DNA from: a plasmid
Strand: one strand, 5' to 3'
Sequence record: NZ_CP031419.1
DNA: 64,000 nt
Shown here: positions 2,661 through 39,770 of the stretch, piece by piece
Position numbering within the stretch: position 1 is the first letter of the stretch
How the letters are laid out: every line of letters begins with the position of its first letter
Position numbers and translations under genes: made by a program
The notes under the pieces: model-generated
The model's database searches: none
What the model was told of the DNA's origin: nothing
Seen by the model: the letters and a program-made list of their open reading frames with translations, nothing else

Positions 2661-2857
2661 TCCGGGGCTAGCTCACGCCAGCACGCCCTGAAGACCAGCG
2701 GAGACCAAAGACCACAAACTGAACAATCGACCGGGTTAACCACATGGACGGAAGCCCTCAGCCACGCCTAGCCGAGAGCTCCCGGTTCGTCCATGGGGGA
2801 TGAGCATTCGCCTTCTCATCTCCACGGTGTACCCCCTCAGCAACGAAAGGCCATCCC

Positions 2858-4735
2858 TTGCTGAAGGAACCCAGGGTCGAGGATACCGCACGCCCGAAAT
2901 CCGGTTCAACCGAAACCGCAGAGTGTGTCGAAAACTCACCCTCCTCAAACCGAAGCGGCAGCCCACCAGGGCCACCATCACAGCTCAGATTGCGCGAGTT
3001 GGACCATGTCCTCTACTCCGGTCCCTACGTTCTCATCGACGCCGACAACCATTCGCCGCGCCGGACCCGGTCTCTCGACAGGGCGTACGCCGCGATCGAC
3101 GCCGGCGAGGTTGCTACGGCTGGTGGGACTCTCCGGCCTGGCAACGTCGGCGCAGACATCGACCCCCTCCCAGAGCACGCTGTGCTCGGTGACGCGGTCG
3201 CCGAGGTACTCGTCGGGTGGCTCCACGATCAGGGCATCTTCTACCTGGCGCGTGAGTCCGGTCGGCCCGGAGGTCGGCACGTTGTAGGCGTCGGCGCATC
3301 GCCGGACCAGATGGAGGAATGGAACCGCCTGTGCGCCGATACCGCGCAAGCGTTCGGCGTTCCGGTCGACGACCGCTCTGGCGGCGTGCTGAGACTGCTC
3401 GCCGCCCCGCACCGCAAGGGATACTCCGCACCTGTTCTCGGCGGAACGCTGACGCTGAACGCCCCCACCGTGAGGACGCGAGCCAGCCGGGTCCGCGGTG
3501 CGCGGCCGGCGCGTCGACGGCCTTCGCCTAGCTCTCGCCCGGCGCCCGCTGGTCCCGACACCTCCCGCTCTGCGCGGGAGTACGGGCAAGTCTGCGCCAT
3601 GATCCGCCGTGGATGCACCCCTGCCGAGGCGTGGCGGGCCCAGAACCGCCCCGGATCGAAAGCTTCCGAGCGTGGAGAGCACCGGTGGCGGCGCTTCGTC
3701 TGGCTCGATGCCCACACCACCGTGTGCGCCGAGGAAGGGCTTACGCCGGAGCAAGCATGGCAGCGGGTCAGCGCAGCAAGTCCGGCCGTGTGCCGCAAGA
3801 TCGGACGGCGAGCATGGCAGCGCCTCTGGGAGCGTGCGGTCGAGCAGGCGGCCATTCAGCGGCCGCGCCGGCGGCGCCTGCCGTCCGACACTGTGAATAG
3901 GTCGACGGGAGCGGACAACGCGCGGATCGCCGCTGTCGCAGCGGGCCTCAAAACAGCACTCGATGCGACAGATCTGGGCGTGCGCCCCCAACGACGGAGG
4001 AACTGCGAGATTCTGCTGCTGAACCTCGCGCCGGTCTTCGTCAGGCGGGAGGGTTCAATCTCGGTGCGGGATATCGCTCTTCGTGCGGGCATCGACGTGA
4101 AAACGGTCCGGGTGTGCCGCGACCTACTCATCGCCCACGGACTTCTCGCGACGACGCACCACTACGCAGGCGGCGCGTCGGACAGCCACGCTTACGCGAT
4201 GGGACCAGCGGCCCGTCCTTACGTCGACGACGCAGTTTCGAAAATTTCCCCCACTTGTCCGAAGGACACCCCCCTCCCCCCAACGCCCTCCGGCCGCGCC
4301 GACCGCTCCCTCCTCCGCTCCCGCTTCCGCCGTGAACGCCACCACTGGCGCATCCGCTGCGCAGCCCTAGCCGACCTACCCCCTGGTGAATCCCTGGCCA
4401 GCAGCTCGTCACCCGCGGTGAAGGCGTACCGCTCGCTGCGCTACCAGCAGCGCTGGTGGCGCAGCCTGTCGTGCGACGACCAGGAGGCGCGTCGGGCTGC
4501 CAGGCGCGCGACACTCGAGGCGCTGACCCCCAGCGCCCGCTCGGCCTGGTTCAACTGGCTGGACCGGCGGAACAGCCTGGTGGCCGTGGTTGATCGGGCT
4601 GCCGCCGGAACCTTCACTTCGACCGACCGATCTGTCCTGGCTGCTGCGCCTCGAACTGTGCACACGGGGCTGCAAGACCCCAGCTGGCAGCCCTGCCGCC
4701 CTCGGAGCAGACAGCTCGTCTTGGCGGCGGCTTAG
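2858..4735 (+). CDS. putative replication initiator (primase-polymerase-like DxD motif plus C-terminal winged-helix domain)
   Basis: TTG start with GAAAGG RBS. LIDADN (hhhDhD-like) motif and a C-terminal wHTH-like segment (SVRDIALRAGIDVKTVRVCRDLLIAHGLL). Sits next to a repeat-rich candidate origin. Confidence 0.5.
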   Translation: MLKEPRVEDTARPKSGSTETAECVENSPSSNRSGSPPGPPSQLRLRELDHVLYSGPYVLIDADNHSPRRTRSLDRAYAAIDAGEVATAGGTLRPGNVGADIDPLPEHAVLGDAVAEVLVGWLHDQGIFYLARESGRPGGRHVVGVGASPDQMEEWNRLCADTAQAFGVPVDDRSGGVLRLLAAPHRKGYSAPVLGGTLTLNAPTVRTRASRVRGARPARRRPSPSSRPAPAGPDTSRSAREYGQVCAMIRRGCTPAEAWRAQNRPGSKASERGEHRWRRFVWLDAHTTVCAEEGLTPEQAWQRVSAASPAVCRKIGRRAWQRLWERAVEQAAIQRPRRRRLPSDTVNRSTGADNARIAAVAAGLKTALDATDLGVRPQRRRNCEILLLNLAPVFVRREGSISVRDIALRAGIDVKTVRVCRDLLIAHGLLATTHHYAGGASDSHAYAMGPAARPYVDDAVSKISPTCPKDTPLPPTPSGRADRSLLRSRFRRERHHWRIRCAALADLPPGESLASSSSPAVKAYRSLRYQQRWWRSLSCDDQEARRAARRATLEALTPSARSAWFNWLDRRNSLVAVVDRAAAGTFTSTDRSVLAAAPRTVHTGLQDPSWQPCRPRSRQLVLAAA

Positions 4736-5422
4736 GCTAGACGGGGGTACTGAGCGCGCGGCGGATCGTAACCGGCAGGTGGAGGTCCGATAGCTTTGGA
4801 AGAGCCGTGAGCCCCGGCACTATTGGGGCTCTGCGGGCTTGTGGCGGACACGGACGCGGCGAGGGTAACGACTGAACTCTGACACGGTCCAGCGGGTTGA
4901 GCAGTGCCGGTGTCGGGCTCCGTCGGCTGGGCCGTACGGCATACACACCGCGTGAGCAGGGAGGCCAGGCGACCGGACTGGGCCCAGCAGTGCGAGCCGC
5001 CTCGCGCCTCGAACCTGATGTGGCGGGTCGAACGGTTCGAGCTGCGTGCTCAAGAGCGAAACTTCCCACACAACTTCGGAGTTGGGCCGGTTAAGGAGTG
5101 TTCGGTGCCAGCGGAAACTTCCCACACCGCGAATATCGGGTAAACCACGGTTTACCCGAGCCCGGGTTGAATCCGGCGCTGACGTCAGCAGGTCGAAGAA
5201 CTTCACTACGTGCGTGAGGTCGCAGGCCAGAGTGGAAACTTCCCACACTGACCACAATCTCAAAACGTCCGTTTTGGAAGCGTGGCAGGGCCGCGTGAAC
5301 GGCAAGGATTCCGCCGAGCCCTTCCGGGTCGACCGGCGACCGAGGGCCTCAGCGCGTCGTCACAGTGACGAAATGGTTTGGGGGAAGGCAGTGGTTGGTA
5401 AACGCAGTCTCTCGGCCCAACT

Positions 5423-7567: not shown

Positions 7568-7835
7568 ACTCAATTCACGTGATCAATTCGTCTAGTCGCG
7601 CGATGCGCTCCATGCGGTAAACCGCGGTTTACCCGGAGTGTCCGTGACTGCTGCCGGTGGCCCGCCGTCTCTGGACCTTCCGTCGGGTCCGACGCATGGA
7701 ATGCGAGCTGTTGGCGAAACTTCCCACACAACCTCTTCGGCGAGTAAACCGCGGTTTACCGTATGGCCCCACACCCGGCCATCGGCCACAGGGCGAGAAC
7801 TTCCCACACAAACTTCAATGGGGGTAAACCGCGGT

Positions 7836-26801: not shown

Positions 26802-27212
26802 TCAGAAGGGTGCTTCGTCGTCGCCCCACGGGGCGCTTGAGTCACCGCGCCCGTCGGCGGGCTCGTCGTCCTCGTCGTCGGGGTTCCAGTCGTCGGGGAC
26901 GCCGTCGGCCCACACCACTGCCTTGGCGTTGTGGTCCCAGGTGACGTTGGCGAGGGCCTGCACGTTCTCCAGCGAGGCGTCGTCTTCGACGCGAACGCCC
27001 GCCGGGATGTGCCACAGGTCGCCCCGGAAGTCCCAGGCCGACCCGCTGCGCTGGGCCGAGGAGCTGACTTCCTCGGCCGCCCAGGCGCGGGCGTCGGCCT
27101 CGGTGACGAATTCCTTCTCGTCGAGGGAGCGTCGCTCGGACGCGGGCGGGACGTCGGAGAAGACGACGTAGAAGCGATCGTGGTCCGCGACCACTGCTGC
27201 CAGAGGACTCAT
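26802..27212 (-). CDS. acidic hypothetical protein
   Basis: 136 aa, Asp/Glu-rich C-terminus. Preceded by a full copy of the conserved leader. Confidence 0.55.
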   Translation of the reverse strand: MSPLAAVVADHDRFYVVFSDVPPASERRSLDEKEFVTEADARAWAAEEVSSSAQRSGSAWDFRGDLWHIPAGVRVEDDASLENVQALANVTWDHNAKAVVWADGVPDDWNPDDEDDEPADGRGDSSAPWGDDEAPF

Positions 27213-27372: not shown

Positions 27373-27837
27373 TCAGTCGGTGCTGTAGGAGTGCCGGTGC
27401 CGGGCCGGGGCGCATTGCCGACGGCGCAGCACGGCGAGCCGTCGCGTGTCCTGCGATCGGGCGGGGCTCGATGGGCGCGCCGCCGGGCATCCCTCCGGTT
27501 CGCCGAGCGGTGCGGTGGCAGACAGAACAGCGAGGGCCGCCTCCCAGCGATCGGCCCGGTCCGCCGCCCGCAGCTGCACCGCCAGAACGGTCAGGCTCGC
27601 CGCGCCGACACCGACGGCGACCACGGCGAGCGGCGCGGACAACGGCATGGTCGCCACCGCCCACAGGAACGACAGCGCCGCGAGGCAGCCGTGCGCCGCC
27701 GACAGCGTGGTCGCGCCGGGTCGCTCGCCGGTGGCGGGGAACCGTTGCGCGTCTCGGCGGTAGGAGAGCGCGAGCGCGGCGAACACGACACCCGGCCCGC
27801 CGAGGAGCAGGGCCGGGACGGCGTACGAGGCGGACAC
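27373..27837 (-). CDS. membrane protein
   Basis: Several hydrophobic helices (AVPALLLGGPGVVFAALAL, AALSFLWAVATMPL, LAVVAVGVGAASLTVLAV). Confidence 0.45.
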   Translation of the reverse strand: MSASYAVPALLLGGPGVVFAALALSYRRDAQRFPATGERPGATTLSAAHGCLAALSFLWAVATMPLSAPLAVVAVGVGAASLTVLAVQLRAADRADRWEAALAVLSATAPLGEPEGCPAARPSSPARSQDTRRLAVLRRRQCAPARHRHSYSTD

Positions 27838-27842
27838 AGCCG

Positions 27843-28379
27843 TCAGCTCCGCACCCGTGCGGCGGCTGGCGCGCCCGCGTCGGCGGCAGCGACCCGAACC
27901 GGATCGGCAGCGGCGGACGGACCGCCGGAACCGGCTGGAGCCGGATCGGGTTGTGGGACGGCGGCGGACGGGGTGACCGGCGTGCCCGGGGAGGTCGACT
28001 CAAGTTCGGAGTCCTCCGCCGGCGGCGGAGTCAGCGGCGCTTCGGCCGCAGCGGTCGACGCACGTGAGGGGCGAGGCCGAGGCTTGGCCTTCGCCCGCTT
28101 CGCCACAGCACGGATAGCGTCGGTGGGCTTGAGTCCGATCCGTTCCAGCGCGGCCGCCTCGGCTCCGGCATTGGTGGCCGCCTCGTAGGCAGCCACCACG
28201 GCATCCTCGGCAGCTTCCTCATCGGCGATCAACCGCGCTGTCTCGGCCCGGCGCGTCTCGGACGCCTGCTGCCATTCCCCGACCTTCACCGCGAGTTCGC
28301 CGATGCGCGTCTCCATATCGTCGTCGATGACCGCCCGCCGGTACGCGGACAGAGCATCGGTCGCCATCTTCTTCGCCAT
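27843..28379 (-). CDS. hypothetical protein with low-complexity Ala/Pro tail
   Basis: MAKKMATDALSAYRR... N-terminal helical part. A TTTAGATACA box lies about 50 bp upstream. Confidence 0.5.
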   Translation of the reverse strand: MAKKMATDALSAYRRAVIDDDMETRIGELAVKVGEWQQASETRRAETARLIADEEAAEDAVVAAYEAATNAGAEAAALERIGLKPTDAIRAVAKRAKAKPRPRPSRASTAAAEAPLTPPPAEDSELESTSPGTPVTPSAAVPQPDPAPAGSGGPSAAADPVRVAAADAGAPAAARVRS

Positions 28380-28698
28380 GGGAAACCTCTCGTCGCTCAG
28401 CGCTCACTAATGGAGCGATCGAACCTAGTGTATCTAATGTATCTACAGAACGGAGGTGGTCAACCATGCGAACGGGAGTCGGGTGAGTGCGCGCCTTGCT
28501 CGCCGGGTGTCCCGTTCGTTCAGTCTGCGCACCGGGGCGGGCTGGGGTCGGGCGCCCGCAGCCTCGATCCAGCCCCCCTCGTTCACGGCACCGGCCTCGT
28601 CGCGTATCGCGCCCGCCCAGCGAACGAAAGCGTTTTCCACGTGGAGCTCACCGTGAGCCGCAGCGTGGCTGACCAGCCTTTTCCGGTGAGCAAGATAT

Positions 28699-28880
28699 CC
28701 CAAAACCCCGGGGTTTTGGGTTGCGCCCGGGGACGGGCGCGAGACACACTCGAAGTGATTCGAGTGTGTCTAAAGCCTCCAGAGGATCTGGAGGCGCCGA
28801 TGTACCCAGACCTGCGGTCCGGCCACATCGGCTGGCCCGGCAGGCGACTGCCGGCCCTGCGAGCGCACCAGTGCGCCCGG
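28699..28880 (+). other. candidate oriT upstream of mobC (stacked inverted repeats plus an RSF1010-like nic motif)
   Basis: Perfect 22-bp palindrome CCCAAAACCCCGGGGTTTTGGG (28699-28720). IR GACACACTCGAA/TTCGAGTGTGTC (28743-28771). IR CCTCCAGA/TCTGGAGG (28777-28795). GCGCACCAGTGCGCCCGG (28862-28880) resembles the MOBQ nic core AAGTGCG|CCCT. Confidence 0.45.
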
Positions 28881-28898
28881 TAGGCGAAAGGACGTGAA

Positions 28899-29318
28899 GT
28901 GCCCCCGAAGAGCAGACAGGGCCATCGGCCTCACTCCGTCGAGAAGCGGACGCGCCGCCATGAGGCGCTGTTCGCACCCGCGGAGTGGGCACTAGTGGCC
29001 GCCGCGGCGGCCACTGTCGGGCTGAAGCCTGGCGCCTTCATCGCCAAGGCAGCCGTTGGTGCCGCGCGTGCGTTCGCCGCACAGCGCAATGGCTCAGCCG
29101 TCCGCACCAGCGGCCAGGTGGAGATCCTCATCGCCGAGGTTCGGGAGTTGCGCCGACTGCTGGGCAACGTGGCCGGGAATGTGAACGATGTCGCCAAGCA
29201 CGCGAACTCCACCGGCGAACTCGGCCAGAACGCGGACGCGGTGCTCGCCTACACCCGCAAGATCAACGGCCGCATCGACACATGGTTGGTTGAACAGCTT
29301 CGGCACGGTGCGCTGTGA
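28899..29318 (+). CDS. mobC: MobC-family mobilisation protein
   Basis: GNVAGNVNDVAKHANSTGEL matches the MobC signature (GNNLNQLAKhAN). Confidence 0.8.
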   Translation: MPPKSRQGHRPHSVEKRTRRHEALFAPAEWALVAAAAATVGLKPGAFIAKAAVGAARAFAAQRNGSAVRTSGQVEILIAEVRELRRLLGNVAGNVNDVAKHANSTGELGQNADAVLAYTRKINGRIDTWLVEQLRHGAL

Positions 29319-30946
29319 TCGGCAAGGCGATCAGGGGATGGGACGGGCAGCGGCTCGTGCGGTACCTGTTCTCGAAGGGCAAGTACAACGAGCACACCAA
29401 CCCCACCGTGATCGCAGCATGGCAATCCGACCCCGACGCCCTTCAACCGGTATGGGTCGGCCCCGACGACTGCGACTTCGCGCCCGGTGAGATCGGCAAA
29501 CTCGCCAACCAGGTAACCGCCCTGTCGGATGCGATCGGGCTGCCCACCGAACAGCCCGAGCCCGGCCAGCCGGGCTACACCAAGCACGGCTACATCTGGC
29601 ACCTGCCGGTGGCCATCGGCGCCGAAGACGGGGAACTCGGCCACGACACCTGGCGGCGCATCGCCGAGGACATGCTGCACGAGACCGGGATCGCGAAAGC
29701 GGGAGACGCCGGGGCGTGCCGGTGGATCGCGGTGCACCACGGCAAGTCCGTCGACGGCAACGACCACATTCACATCGCCGCGGTCCTCGTGCGCGCCGAC
29801 ACCGGCAAACGCTTCTACCCCGACAACGATTGGAAAGCCGTACGCCGCGTCGCCCGGCGCTGGGAACAAGCTCTCGGTCTGCGAATGACCGCCATCAACG
29901 ACCCGTCGGCCGTACCCACCCCGACGCGCGGGGAACAGGAAAAGGCGAAGCGCCGCCACGCCGCCGGCGACGACGGCATGCTGCGAGCGACACCAGGTGC
30001 CGCGGCACGGGTACAGCTGCGGCAGATGATCACCGAGACCGCCGCCGTCGCGACGAGCGCCGACGAATTCGTTGCCCGGCTCCGCGACGCGGGCATGCTC
30101 ATCGACTTCAAGTACGACGCCATCGGGCAGATCAAGGGATGGGCGGTCGCCGCTCCCGGGGACGTATCGGCGAGAACCGGCGAGCCCATCTACTTCGCGC
30201 CCAGCCGGCACTTGGGCGCAGATATGTCTTGGCCGCGGATCACCGCCCGCTGGTCGGCCTCCGTGCCCGGCCGTCCCGGCGCCGCGCGGGAAGCGGCCGC
30301 CACCGACACAGCACGCGAGCCGCATGCAGTGCTGGCCGACAGCGCTGAGCGGGTCCGGTCGGTCACCACCGCAGTGCGCGGTGGCCGCGCCGACGTGGCG
30401 ACCGTGGCCCGCGAGTTGCAGGACGTCATCAGTAGTTGGGCATCCATCGCCGACGGTGCGGCGCGCCAGGGCCCGCTCTCCCGGGCCGCCTGGGTCTACG
30501 ACCGCGCCGCCCGCACCCGGCGCGGTCTGGCCGCCGTTCCCGCCGGGCAACTCGCCGCCGAACTGCGTGAGGTCTCGCGCGGACTCGCTGCGGTCCGAAT
30601 GCTGTCCGGTCGCGGCCTGCAACGAGATCCGAGCCTGCAACTCGGGCTCGCTATCGCCGAACTGTTGCTGGAGATCGCCGCATGGCACCAGCAGAACCAG
30701 CGCATCGCTGCCGCGCGCAGTGCCCGCGAAGCCGCCGGCCTGGTGCGCGCGCACGGGGAGGCCACCGGTGCCGTCCCGGGCCAGCTCCCGCCGCGGCGCG
30801 CCCCGGCGGGCACCGGGCACACGCCCACCGTCACAGCACACCCCGGTCCGGCCGCGCGGCCGGGCGAAGGCCGCCGCGAACTGCCTGCGGTGCGCGGCGT
30901 CCGTGAACTGCCGTCCGGCCCAACAAGGAAGGAACACCGACGATGA
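29315..30946 (+). CDS. relaxase/mobilisation nuclease (MOBQ/MOBP-like)
   Basis: N-terminal Tyr region (RLVRYLFSKGKY). His-triad motif HHGKSVDGNDHIHIAAV (HxDxxNxHxH). Confidence 0.85.
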   Translation: MIGKAIRGWDGQRLVRYLFSKGKYNEHTNPTVIAAWQSDPDALQPVWVGPDDCDFAPGEIGKLANQVTALSDAIGLPTEQPEPGQPGYTKHGYIWHLPVAIGAEDGELGHDTWRRIAEDMLHETGIAKAGDAGACRWIAVHHGKSVDGNDHIHIAAVLVRADTGKRFYPDNDWKAVRRVARRWEQALGLRMTAINDPSAVPTPTRGEQEKAKRRHAAGDDGMLRATPGAAARVQLRQMITETAAVATSADEFVARLRDAGMLIDFKYDAIGQIKGWAVAAPGDVSARTGEPIYFAPSRHLGADMSWPRITARWSASVPGRPGAAREAAATDTAREPHAVLADSAERVRSVTTAVRGGRADVATVARELQDVISSWASIADGAARQGPLSRAAWVYDRAARTRRGLAAVPAGQLAAELREVSRGLAAVRMLSGRGLQRDPSLQLGLAIAELLLEIAAWHQQNQRIAAARSAREAAGLVRAHGEATGAVPGQLPPRRAPAGTGHTPTVTAHPGPAARPGEGRRELPAVRGVRELPSGPTRKEHRR

Positions 30947-32676
30947 ACCAGCCGGTCATTGAAACGCCCGTGATGGGCATCCCTCGCGAGGACACCATGC
31001 GCATGGCACTGGCAGCACGCACGCTGTCGGGAGTGCTGAGGCAGCTACGGGAACGGCGGGGCCGCTCCGCCTGGGACGACGCCGAGAACGCCGCCCGCAA
31101 GAACGCGGTCCTCGACCGCCACACGGTCAACCGATTCAGCCGTGCCGACGCCGAGGAATGGAACACTGCGGAAAGGGAAGGTCGCATCCGAGCCGAACGG
31201 CACCCGGATACCGGCATGACAATTCGTGTGGCCCCACTCTCGCGCGGCCGATTCGGGGTGCAAGCCGGATGGGAGGACAACCACGCCGAGGCAGTGTTCG
31301 GCTCCGAGGATCTTGCCGCCCGGGTGGCCGACTGGCTGCGAGCCGACGGCTCAGCCGATGCTGTCGACGATCTACGCCGCAATGTCGAGGACATGCACGC
31401 CACGTCCCGGCCACGGCAGCAACGGACTCTCCGAGACATCGAGCTCGCCGAGGCCCGCAAATGGGCACAAGAGAACGATGCCGACTGGTACCGCTGGTGG
31501 GAGTTGAGCTACACCAACGCCGACACCATCGATGGACGCCGCCTCGACGAGGCCGAGATCATCAACAAGTGGGTCGACGCCACCGGCGGCACCACCCGCA
31601 GCGCCGTCGGCGTGGCCCGGCGCTGGCTGGCCGAACACGATCCGGAGTGGACCAAGAACTGGGTGGCCGAATACGACAACTGCGACACACGCGACGGACG
31701 CCGCAGCCTCGAAGCTGAGATCGTTCGCCGATGGCGCGCCCAGTCTCGCGCTGGGCGTGGACGTGGCGGAGCCGGCCAGGACCAGGGCGCTGACGCAGGT
31801 GCCGCGGAACAGGGCAGCGGTCCGCAGGACCAGCGCACTCCGACCCCACTCGCAGACCGACTGCGGGGGCGAGTGCCTGATCGTGTTCTCGATGATCCGC
31901 GTTGGCATGTCGCCGAGGACCAGTTTGCTGTGCTCACCTCGCAGGGCGCCGACCCGGACACCCTCATCGAATCCGTTGCCGCGATCGACTTCAACAACGG
32001 CCAGATCCGCGCACCCAGCGGCTTCGCCGCCTGGGCAATGCGCGAAGCCGCGAAGAAGGGGAAAGCAGCCAACGCGCACACCCGCAGCGAGGAAGATGCT
32101 CGCCGCTCGGTGGCAGAGGAATGGCTCATGAGTGCGGACCCGGACTCACCGTTCGACCGAGCCCGCGCGGCGCAGTTGGTCGGCGAGATCGACGATGACT
32201 TCGACGCCCTGCTCGCCCGCAAGTACCCGGGCATCCTCGATGGCGATGCCGAGCAGGCGCGAGCCAAGGCCGCACAGCACGAGAGCAACGCCGATACCGC
32301 TGACGACCAGGCTCGCAAGGACAACGCCGCGGCCCAGCAGACCGCGGACGAGGACGAGGCTGAGGACACGGTGTTCGTGGTCGACAGCGACGGCACCGTC
32401 ATCACCGTGCCGTTCGTTCCAGCACCGGAACCCCCGCCCGAAGCCGAAGCCGAAGCGGCCAGCCACGCCGCCGACGCCGACCGCGAGCACGAGGCCGCCG
32501 ACCGCGAGCACGACACCGACTCCCAACACCGCGCCACCCGCACCGCCGAAGCCGCAGCGCAGGCTCCGCTCACCCCACCCAAACAAGCCAAAACCAACGC
32601 CAAGACCCGTCGGCGAACCCCACCGCCGGCCAAACCCGCGGCGACGCACACCCGGAACCGGGGCCGCGCGCACTGA
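30943..32676 (+). CDS. hypothetical protein with two internal repeat modules and acidic low-complexity tail
   Basis: DADWYRWWELSYTNADTIDGRRLDEAEIINKW and DPEWTKNWVAEYDNCDTRDGRRSLEAEIVRRW are tandem repeats. ATGA overlap with the relaxase gene. Confidence 0.6.
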   Translation: MNQPVIETPVMGIPREDTMRMALAARTLSGVLRQLRERRGRSAWDDAENAARKNAVLDRHTVNRFSRADAEEWNTAEREGRIRAERHPDTGMTIRVAPLSRGRFGVQAGWEDNHAEAVFGSEDLAARVADWLRADGSADAVDDLRRNVEDMHATSRPRQQRTLRDIELAEARKWAQENDADWYRWWELSYTNADTIDGRRLDEAEIINKWVDATGGTTRSAVGVARRWLAEHDPEWTKNWVAEYDNCDTRDGRRSLEAEIVRRWRAQSRAGRGRGGAGQDQGADAGAAEQGSGPQDQRTPTPLADRLRGRVPDRVLDDPRWHVAEDQFAVLTSQGADPDTLIESVAAIDFNNGQIRAPSGFAAWAMREAAKKGKAANAHTRSEEDARRSVAEEWLMSADPDSPFDRARAAQLVGEIDDDFDALLARKYPGILDGDAEQARAKAAQHESNADTADDQARKDNAAAQQTADEDEAEDTVFVVDSDGTVITVPFVPAPEPPPEAEAEAASHAADADREHEAADREHDTDSQHRATRTAEAAAQAPLTPPKQAKTNAKTRRRTPPPAKPAATHTRNRGRAH

Positions 32677-32943
32677 GGCGGCCTCTTCATCGTCGGGTGG
32701 CCTGCGCGGGCGAGATCCTGCGCGGGCCACCCGGGATCGGCGTCGCCAGACAGAATCGCCCGCCCATCGTCTGCGGTGCTTATGCTGGGCCCTGAGCAGT
32801 GGAACGCGAATCACTGGCTGCTCTGGGACATGGCCCTCCCCTCCGGCCATGTACACGAAGATGCCCATCGGTTGAATCCGATGGGCATCTCTTTCCTCGT
32901 CCAGTCCCGGCGATCCGGGGGTAAGCCGCCGGGGCGGCTGCGG

Positions 32944-39488: not shown

Positions 39489-39770
39489 AGGCTCTTCCTT
39501 CCTCTCGACGGCGTCGCAGGCTGGGTCGCACCTGACCGCAGCCGCAGGGTTCCACTGTATCTAAAGGTGCGTCCACACCTAATGGTCCGAGTACCCCCGC
39601 CGAGCCTTTCGGATCTATCGCACCATTAGATACATTAGAGGCATACCAAGTTTACCTGCGGCAACCGTCGCAGGTGAAACCGCAAAACGGATGTTTTAGA
39701 TACATCAGCTACAACGGAACCATTGGGGCTGGTGACCATCGCCGCCCCGCCGCCGAACAAGGAGGCGAAC

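Follow-up and report, generated by a model that had tools for sequence, protein, structure and literature searches.

Genes and features of the locus

The window (the whole stretch of 64,000 nucleotides that was analysed) is a pNF1-like Nocardia plasmid. Its positions 27800-32700 are 97-98% identical to plasmids of N. cyriacigeorgica (CP026745) and N. farcinica (CP133581), and pNF1 shows 97% identity to it from 28680 onward. The near-identical plasmids are described as 'mobilizable; relaxase MOBP' by MOB-suite typing, as given by PLSDB. A gene for a 178-aa protein (27843-28379) points leftward, so the region 28380-28898 is a divergent intergenic region; this leader, put at 520 bp in the first-pass annotation, measures 519 bp. 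To its right a MobC/NikA-like ribbon-helix-helix accessory protein of 139 aa is encoded on the plus strand (28899-29318; Pfam NikA-like, E 5.8e-5, below the gathering score), followed on the same strand by a relaxase of 543 aa (29315-30946; Pfam PF03432, E 1.5e-7); the ORF after the relaxase encodes a 577-aa protein without a family match. The ribosome-binding site of mobC, AAAGGA, is located at 28887-28892, and the GTG start at 28899 is supported by the orthologues, which keep the N-terminus K-x-R-G-H-R-x-H; on the near-identical plasmids RefSeq gives, instead of this 139-aa ORF, one of 108 aa with a start near 28995. No gene for type IV secretion or a coupling protein was recognised in the 20 large ORFs scanned and the 577-aa ORF after the relaxase, which counts against the origin of transfer proposed below.

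The leader contains seven consecutive hairpins between 28699 and 28877. The first one, IR1 (28699-28720), is the perfect 22-bp palindrome CCCAAAACCCCGGGGTTTTGGG, which had been noticed in the first-pass annotation and is present as described. On the plus strand it is followed by a lineage-specific block composed of TTGCGCCC and IR2 (GCGCCCG-GGGA-CGGGCGC; 28721-28740) and then by IR3 (28742-28771; core ACTCGAA..TTCGAG), whose arms (28742-28754 and 28759-28771) are perfect as claimed, but 13 nt long and not 12. The same applies to IR4 (28775-28795), a perfect repeat with arms of 9 nt (28775-28783 and 28787-28795) where 8 had been given. IR5 (28796-28832) and IR6 (28831-28860) are imperfect repeats, and IR7 (28863-28878, plus strand) is made of GCGCAC-CA-GTGCGC (28863-28876) plus CC. 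Folded as single-stranded DNA, 28680-28775 reaches -34.5 kcal/mol vs -13.3 +/- 2.5 for shuffles (z -8.5, 0/200), and 28775-28898 gives z -4.3 for the plus strand and -6.6 for the minus strand.

These hairpins differ in how they are kept among relatives. The core of IR3 is retained in Rhodococcus, Williamsia and Gordonia leaders with a window-type relaxase and is absent from the copies found on plasmids lacking a relaxase (orphan copies, see below). At the place of IR4-IR6 the leaders of relatives have other sequences that also form hairpin chains (z -2.6 to -9.1); this part is kept as structure, not as sequence, and is probably a regulatory or accessory-binding part of the leader. The TTGCGCCC and IR2 block is a candidate site for the MobC-like accessory protein, or else for an alternative nick at TTGCG|CCC. 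IR2 as a conserved hairpin was considered and rejected, being strong only in the Nocardia and pREC2 lineages, with a mean z of -0.6 over 20 units.

Two further repeated motifs were seen in the leader. A direct repeat, GCCCGGCAGGCGA / GCCCGGTAGGCGA, at 28835-28847 and 28875-28887 (40 nt spacing) flanks the last hairpins before the mobC start and is a possible binding site of the ribbon-helix-helix protein. A repeated TCTAATGTATCTAATG-type motif at 28425-28447 adjoins a promoter-like site of the leftward gene, recurs at about 39624-39638 (minus strand) just upstream of a 2444-aa helicase/methyltransferase gene, and accompanies the leftward operon on Gordonia and Williamsia plasmids too (L030, L031, L027); it is probably a shared operator.

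A conserved unit at the left end of the hairpin chain

Directly abutting IR1 lies an element termed here box 1 (28688-28698), which reads GAGCAAGATAT, or ATATCTTG|CTC on the minus strand, where it is the predicted nick region. This most conserved element is single-copy in the window and falls just outside the interval 28699-28880 to which the first-pass annotation had assigned its candidate. BLAST of the leader against 72,556 plasmids detected a short shared block, roughly window 28680-28764, common to Rhodococcus and Gordonia plasmids and to the pNF2-type N. farcinica plasmids, and present also on the small plasmids pREC2 (3.6 kb), pN30 (5.4 kb), Prescottella equi p2287 (14 kb) and pRE94-31 (23 kb). 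The order within the aligned block is the invariant GAGCAAGATAT, then the palindrome, then a more variable stretch that contains TTGCGCC.

The pattern GCAAGATATNNNAAAACCNNNNGGTTTT was scanned in 185,579 species genomes (596 Gb) and gave 17 stretches, 16 of them labelled Actinomycetota, mainly Rhodococcus, Williamsia, Nocardia, Gordonia and Prescottella; the only other match lies in a Phenylobacterium MAG, on a 1.3-kb contig where mobC and relaxase genes of the window type are found as well. Box conservation in these loci (L013-L029) is partly by construction, because the scan that found them required GCAAGATAT, while the loci derived from BLAST and from relaxase similarity are free of this bias. 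Box 1 is unchanged in all 20 distinct units aligned, including the GA that lies outside the search pattern. IR1 shows covariation in the same 20 units: 89% of cells are paired, 5/11 pairs are changed on both sides and 0/500 shuffles reach the score. A metagenome scan for IR1 with TTGCGCC, in which box 1 was not required, returned 14 matches, namely one real unit, which has box 1, and 13 unrelated hairpins. A second unit in N. noduli has a degenerate box, GCGAGATGT, next to an intact TTGCGCCC-IR2.

Linkage to relaxase operons

Fourteen loci of Nocardia, Rhodococcus, Gordonia and Williamsia encode a relaxase 44-100% identical to that of the window by tblastn (class A). All 14 possess the unit of box 1 and IR1 at a fixed position and in the same orientation ahead of mobC-relaxase, the MobC-like tblastn match starting 167-394 nt and the relaxase 578-625 nt after the unit. 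The loci reached by relaxase similarity only all keep box 1 beside an inverted repeat; among those found in this way, G. rubripertincta and G. polyisoprenivorans retain box 1 and IR1, the latter without TTGCGCC.

Outside class A the box persists next to other repeats. Its variants GGAGCAAGATAG, GGAGCAAGCTAT and GGGAGCGAGCTA head the leaders of relaxases that are only 26-33% identical to that of the window. In pRErm46 (relaxase 32% identical) GGAGCAAGATAG stands with the unrelated repeat AACTTAGG..CCTAAGTT, and GGAGCAAGCTAT is accompanied by CGATCCGG..CCGGATCG in the Leifsonia leader and by GTTTATG..CATAAAC in the Arthrobacter leader, both likewise unrelated; the relaxases of these three lineages are 26-32% identical to the window's. 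In pNF2-type plasmids (class B), where the relaxase is 30% identical and the accessory protein has no detectable similarity to that of the window, GGGAGC(A/G)AGCTA, a repeat, a hairpin and the invariant TCGCTGCGCTGG(G)C stand directly before nikA, and window-type units occur elsewhere on the same plasmid as well. Box 1 alone is thus shared by every relaxase lineage; repeat and right-hand block are lineage-specific. Published origins of transfer combine a highly conserved nick region with a more variable upstream repeat that has protein-binding sites (PMC3772185), and the arrangement of a constant box and a variable repeat matches this pattern.

A second invariant box (box 2), (T/G)CGCTGCGCTGGGC / (T/G)CGCTGCGCTGG(G)C, occurs in leaders of pNF2 and pRErm46 type, directly after the variable hairpin and just before the mobC/nikA ribosome-binding site; it is absent from window-type leaders. 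It was located in L002 at about 7707-7800 on the minus strand and in the leaders of L019, L020, L032, L033 and L034, and could be the nick of these two lineages instead of box 1, or else an operator or a promoter. In the window, CGCTGCGCTGGGCCGAGGAG at 27040-27085 is an almost exact copy of the box 2 region of Leifsonia; an ORF on the minus strand contains it, 1.6 kb to the left of the unit, and it adjoins a 9-bp repeat, GGCCGAGGA..TCCTCGGCC.

A nick could alternatively be made in the proposed oriT on the plus strand, at TTGCG|CCC (28721-28728; GGGGTTTTGGGTTGCGCCCGGGGAC) immediately 3' of IR1, in a MOBQ/Ti-like manner (TGCG|CCC), and the mobC-relaxase operon would then enter the recipient first. 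TTGCGC follows IR1 in 6/6 class A leaders aligned and in several orphan copies, its TGCGC core is shared with box 2, which also stands after a hairpin, and the second unit of N. noduli keeps it while box 1 is degenerate. The string is nevertheless replaced in G. polyisoprenivorans, a class A locus reached via the relaxase, varies in pNF2 (GTGAGCCC), pREC2 (TTCCGCCC), pRE94-31 (TTGTGCCT) and p2287 (TTGCGGCT), and does not follow the repeat in pRErm46, Leifsonia and Arthrobacter. Moreover, the repeat is only 5-7 nt from the G|C step, and TTGCGCCC occurs in the window at chance frequency (2 seen, about 5 expected). A plus-strand nick at this place is considered rather unlikely.

The RSF1010-like motif and the relaxase family

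In the first-pass annotation the nick was placed at GTGCG|CCC (28871-28878), beside the GCGCAC/GTGCGC repeat of IR7, by analogy with RSF1010. The strings behind this proposal are present: GCGCAC-CA-GTGCGC lies at 28863-28876, 20 nt ahead of AAAGGA, and AGTGCGCCC at 28870-28878 offers nine contiguous bases that fit the published MOBQ nick consensus, NWACCNNTAAGTGCGCCCTYNN (PMC3832669). The flanks do not fit this consensus, and the match is at chance level, since AGTGCGCCC is seen 2 times in the window vs about 1.7 expected, and GTGCGCCC, counted on both strands, 8 times where base composition predicts about 11. The relaxase of N. tenerifensis is 91% identical, and the site there is GCGCGC-CCCAGT-GCGCGC and reads AGTGCGCGCGG, with the core turned into GTGCGCGC and compensating changes that keep the hairpin. 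Because the hairpin is kept while the supposed nick core changes, IR7 fits a structural or regulatory leader element and not a nick site. Class A leaders of Rhodococcus, Williamsia and Gordonia have other hairpins at this place and no TGCGCCC box, and there is no counterpart in any orphan copy. The nick of R1162-type origins lies a few nucleotides 3' of an inverted repeat, outside its stem, whereas GTGCGC is the right arm of the repeat itself, and the supposed cut would fall within this arm and not 8 nt beyond it. In favour of the RSF1010-like site, its place before the mobC ribosome-binding site is that of box 2 (GCTGCGCTGGGC) in pNF2- and pRErm46-type leaders, with 7/10 bases alike by eye. 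IR7 is more likely a leader hairpin or operator than a nick core, and cutting by the relaxase at this site is very improbable. As a side observation, the 12-mer GCTGCGCTGGGC has one occurrence in the window.

The relaxase does have a three-histidine motif, but this reads HHGKSVDGNDHIHI (HHGxSxxGNDHIHI spacing) and not literally HxDxxNDHIHI. Y17, N25, H27, W95-H96, H142 and D150-H151-I152-H153 are invariant over 11 relatives. The N-terminal catalytic tyrosine (Y17), the three-histidine motif and a ribbon-helix-helix accessory protein (NikA-like, below the gathering score) are features of MOBP-type systems, and NCBIfam gives a weak TraI_MobP match (22.9 bits vs a cut-off of 250). Structures of R1162 MobA and of NES have been solved, and with both counted among the solved relaxases, neither phmmer with the relaxase nor a profile of the 11 relatives matched a PDB chain at E <= 10, so there is no structural anchor for a choice between MOBQ and MOBP. 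The relaxase of pRErm46, a plasmid that is experimentally conjugative, was called MOB-P by its authors, who acknowledged F. de la Cruz for confirming the family; their paper names the relaxase, MobC and T4SS, and no oriT (PMC6794481). The RSF1010/MOBQ affiliation is therefore unsupported, given the missing PDB match, the weak TraI/MobP match and the MOB-P assignment of pRErm46, and the near-identical plasmids are themselves typed as MOBP.

Copies on plasmids without a relaxase

The unit is found on four replicons without a relaxase gene: pREC2, pN30, p2287/IME2287 and pRE94-31. The first two are complete plasmids whose coding content is limited to RepA, RepB and small ORFs, and the other two are typed as non-mobilizable. 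These copies are non-coding and elsewhere linked to a relaxase, and on sequence grounds they look like orphan oriTs. In pREC2 (L004, about 2760-2885, minus strand), pN30 (L005), L013, L017 and L021, all replicons without a relaxase, two units stand one after the other at a distance of 92 nt (89 in L021), the first with a window-type repeat and the second with a pRErm46-type repeat and box 2 (GCGCTGCGCTGGGC); they look like orphan oriTs of dual specificity. With a defined unit, the 'non-mobilizable' pREC2, pN30 and IME2287 could be reclassified as potentially mobilisable.

IME2287 has only the window-type unit and no pRErm46-type repeat. Its co-transfer with pRErm46 was seen in none of 90 transconjugants (PMC10669575). 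This is compatible with a specificity determined by the repeat, although it proves nothing; the difference between window-type and pRErm46-type repeats offers a testable explanation for that result.

Other observations concern the setting of single copies. The contigs of 41,635 bp in L017, L024 and L025 carry tandem units and are identical over the stretch compared, while one of them is filed under Nocardioides and the other two under Streptomyces NPDC genomes; the unit found in them is also carried by a 27.6-kb contig (L026) from one more Streptomyces NPDC genome. This likeness suggests a shared plasmid or cross-sample carry-over. In pRE94-31 (L012, about 4930-5003) iteron-like GCAGAGCAA / GCAGAGCGA repeats are located immediately left of box 1.

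Integrative elements beside the unit

The point 28683|28684 (feature 28680-28684) is empty in the window and occupied in related plasmids, as was seen by comparing junctions with empty sites. pNF1 differs from the window by a 3.35-kb insertion between 28683 and 28684, which codes for a tyrosine recombinase, an HTH protein of the Cro/C1 type and a protein of 540 aa. pNF2 has an element 99.85% identical to it at the equivalent position of a window-type unit, and the empty pNF2-type site is found in CP031420. In strain SZ1509 a 76%-identical element occupies exactly the same point in both plasmids, CP086600 and CP086602. Its size is 3.17 kb in CP086602 and 25.1 kb in CP086600, since in the latter a Tn7-like and clpB/dnaK segment interrupts the 540-aa gene. 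Four insertions at an identical position are thus known from four N. farcinica plasmids (pNF1, pNF2, CP086600 and CP086602), with the junction 5 nt from box 1, or 7 nt 3' of the predicted nick. The only Pfam families recognised in the elements are Phage_integrase and HTH_26, with no relaxase; the 540-aa protein has no Pfam match and a weak XerD-like match in NCBIfam. In each strain both co-resident plasmids have the same element variant (L001 648-4000, L002 1648-5003, L036, L037/L038). If the unit is an oriT, these are site-specific integrations beside an oriT, comparable to IME_oriT elements, and the site gives a handle on how cargo such as the clpB/dnaK island of CP086600 reaches these plasmids.

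The four integrations 5 nt from the box could also mean that box and palindrome are not an oriT at all, but a site for recombination (attB or resolution), a terminator acting in both directions, or an element for replication or partition travelling with these plasmids. The unit lies between convergent genes in pNF2 and about 0.7 kb upstream of repA in pREC2 and pN30, and iteron-like GCAGAGCAA repeats stand beside it in pRE94-31. A promoter and terminator scan, uninformative on the whole, returned one weak leftward promoter and one terminator-like site inside IR1. A terminator would however have nothing to terminate in the window, because the flanking genes diverge, and an invariant 11-nt box that is not U-rich makes an atypical terminator tail. 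Rep genes lie at inconstant distances from the unit (0.7 to 2.4 kb), 28300-29000 matched nothing in Rfam at E <= 5, and both the fixed position and orientation ahead of relaxase operons in four genera and the retention of the box with different repeats in distant relaxase lineages speak against these functions. A role other than transfer origin is therefore held to be quite unlikely.

Proposed origin of transfer and its mechanism

The unit is non-coding, linked to relaxase operons, conserved in relatives and present as orphan copies on other replicons. From this conservation, the covariation of IR1, the relaxase linkage and the orphan copies we infer that about 28684-28771 is the origin of transfer of a MOBP-like mobilisation module, with a probability of roughly 60%. 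The first-pass annotation was right that the leader carries the best oriT candidate of the plasmid and that the 22-bp palindrome is part of it, as conservation and relaxase linkage indicate; the comparisons give good support to a predicted core at 28688-28720, extending to about 28771, and not at 28863-28878.

The nick is placed in box 1 because only this element is common to lineages with homologous catalytic centres. On the minus strand IR1 is followed after 8 nt by a G|C step, as ATATCTTG|CTC (IR1 + ATATCTTGCTCACC; the longer candidate sequence over box 1 is CCCCGGGGTTTTGGGATATCTTGCTCACCGGAAA), and the predicted nick would lie between 28691 and 28690 on this strand. The distance from repeat to G|C, counted from the sequences, is 8 nt in the window and 8-10 nt in other lineages, and the repeat stands 5' of the nick region on the same strand and is more variable than the box, as in MOBP-type origins. 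The minus-strand TATCTTGC agrees with the IncP-type consensus YATCCTG|Y at 7/8 positions, with the mismatch inside the ATCCTG hexamer. In the published consensus, (C/T)ATCCTG(C/T), this hexamer is required by RP4 TraI and VirD2 (PMC3772185); the core hexamer here is ATCTTG, one difference from ATCCTG, which counts against a MOBP-type nick. The best reading of the unit is that of a MOBP-like oriT with a putative new variant of the nick box.

In the mechanism proposed, the MobC/NikA-like protein would bind the lineage-specific block and the inverted repeats right of the palindrome, while the relaxase would recognise the IR1 hairpin, 5' of the nick on the transferred strand, together with the adjacent invariant box 1. 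It would cut the minus strand at 5'-ATATCTTG|CTC-3' (28691/28690), 8 nt 3' of IR1, by means of Tyr17 and a metal site of His142/His151/His153, and would remain attached to the 5' end. The minus strand would go leftward first, and the relaxase operon would therefore be the last to enter the recipient. IR4-IR7, situated in the mobC promoter and 5' leader, probably take part in autoregulation. An argument on strand polarity from the leading region was set aside: the giant helicase/methylase gene is directed toward the unit in Rhodococcus and Arthrobacter, whereas in the window it is 11 kb away on the opposite side.

A wider proposal is put forward tentatively, at less than even confidence. The box GGAGCAAG(A/C)TA(T/G) with a lineage-specific repeat may define a previously undescribed oriT family of a large clade of actinobacterial MOBP-like relaxases, including that of pRErm46, the macrolide-resistance plasmid of Rhodococcus equi. 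Small plasmids without a relaxase would collect tandem units of different repeat type and so become mobilisable by more than one relaxase lineage, and tyrosine-recombinase elements that integrate 7 nt downstream of the nick would be the first DNA into the recipient. In the literature consulted, no experimentally defined oriT was found for this relaxase clade and none described for Rhodococcus, Nocardia or Gordonia; the sequence strings of box and palindrome led to no relevant paper. With a unit of about 35-55 bp defined, mobilisable vectors could be built for Nocardia, Rhodococcus, Gordonia and Williamsia.

Comparison with known systems

As far as its sequence can tell, the unit resembles IncP/IncI-type origins rather than RSF1010. 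As in the MOBP origins (RP4 with TraJ/TraI, R64 with NikA/NikB, Ti borders with VirD2), an inverted repeat stands directly 5' of a short conserved nick box on the strand that would be cut, cleavage would occur after a G some 8 nt away from the repeat, the genes for a ribbon-helix-helix accessory protein and a PF03432 relaxase adjoin the site, and the operons diverge around it; the agreement of TATCTTGC with YATCCTGY is 7/8. In contrast to these systems, which have ATCCTG, the hexamer here is ATCTTG (AGCTTG in Micrococcales), and the relaxase is far from TraI, with another spacing of the histidine motif (HHGxSxxGNDHIHI). RSF1010/R1162 (MOBQ) shares with the window TGCGCCC strings by inverted repeats, of which there are two here (28722-28728 and 28872-28878), and a MobC-named gene upstream of the relaxase. 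These strings are, however, chance-level and unconserved, with flanks that do not fit NWACCNNTAAGTGCGCCCTYNN, and the relaxase has no relation to R1162 MobA or NES that the search of PDB could detect, both being counted as solved.

The orphan copies recall the oriT mimics of the staphylococcal pWBG749 family (PMC8136818): small plasmids without a relaxase carry the unit of a conjugative plasmid, and the repeat subtype varies and appears matched to particular relaxase lineages. The present copies differ in their Actinomycetota hosts, in the relaxase family, and in the occurrence of two subtypes in tandem on one plasmid.

The integrations find their closest counterpart in streptococci, where IME_oriT elements insert into the oriT of ICEs (PMC7563843). 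The elements described here differ from them in encoding a tyrosine recombinase, an HTH protein and a 540-aa protein, with no relaxase detected, and in their target, which is the putative oriT of a plasmid with another relaxase family. Nevertheless, in both cases small elements are inserted site-specifically in or beside the oriT, here a putative one, of a host element that is conjugative or mobilisable, and the same element can be met in two co-resident plasmids.
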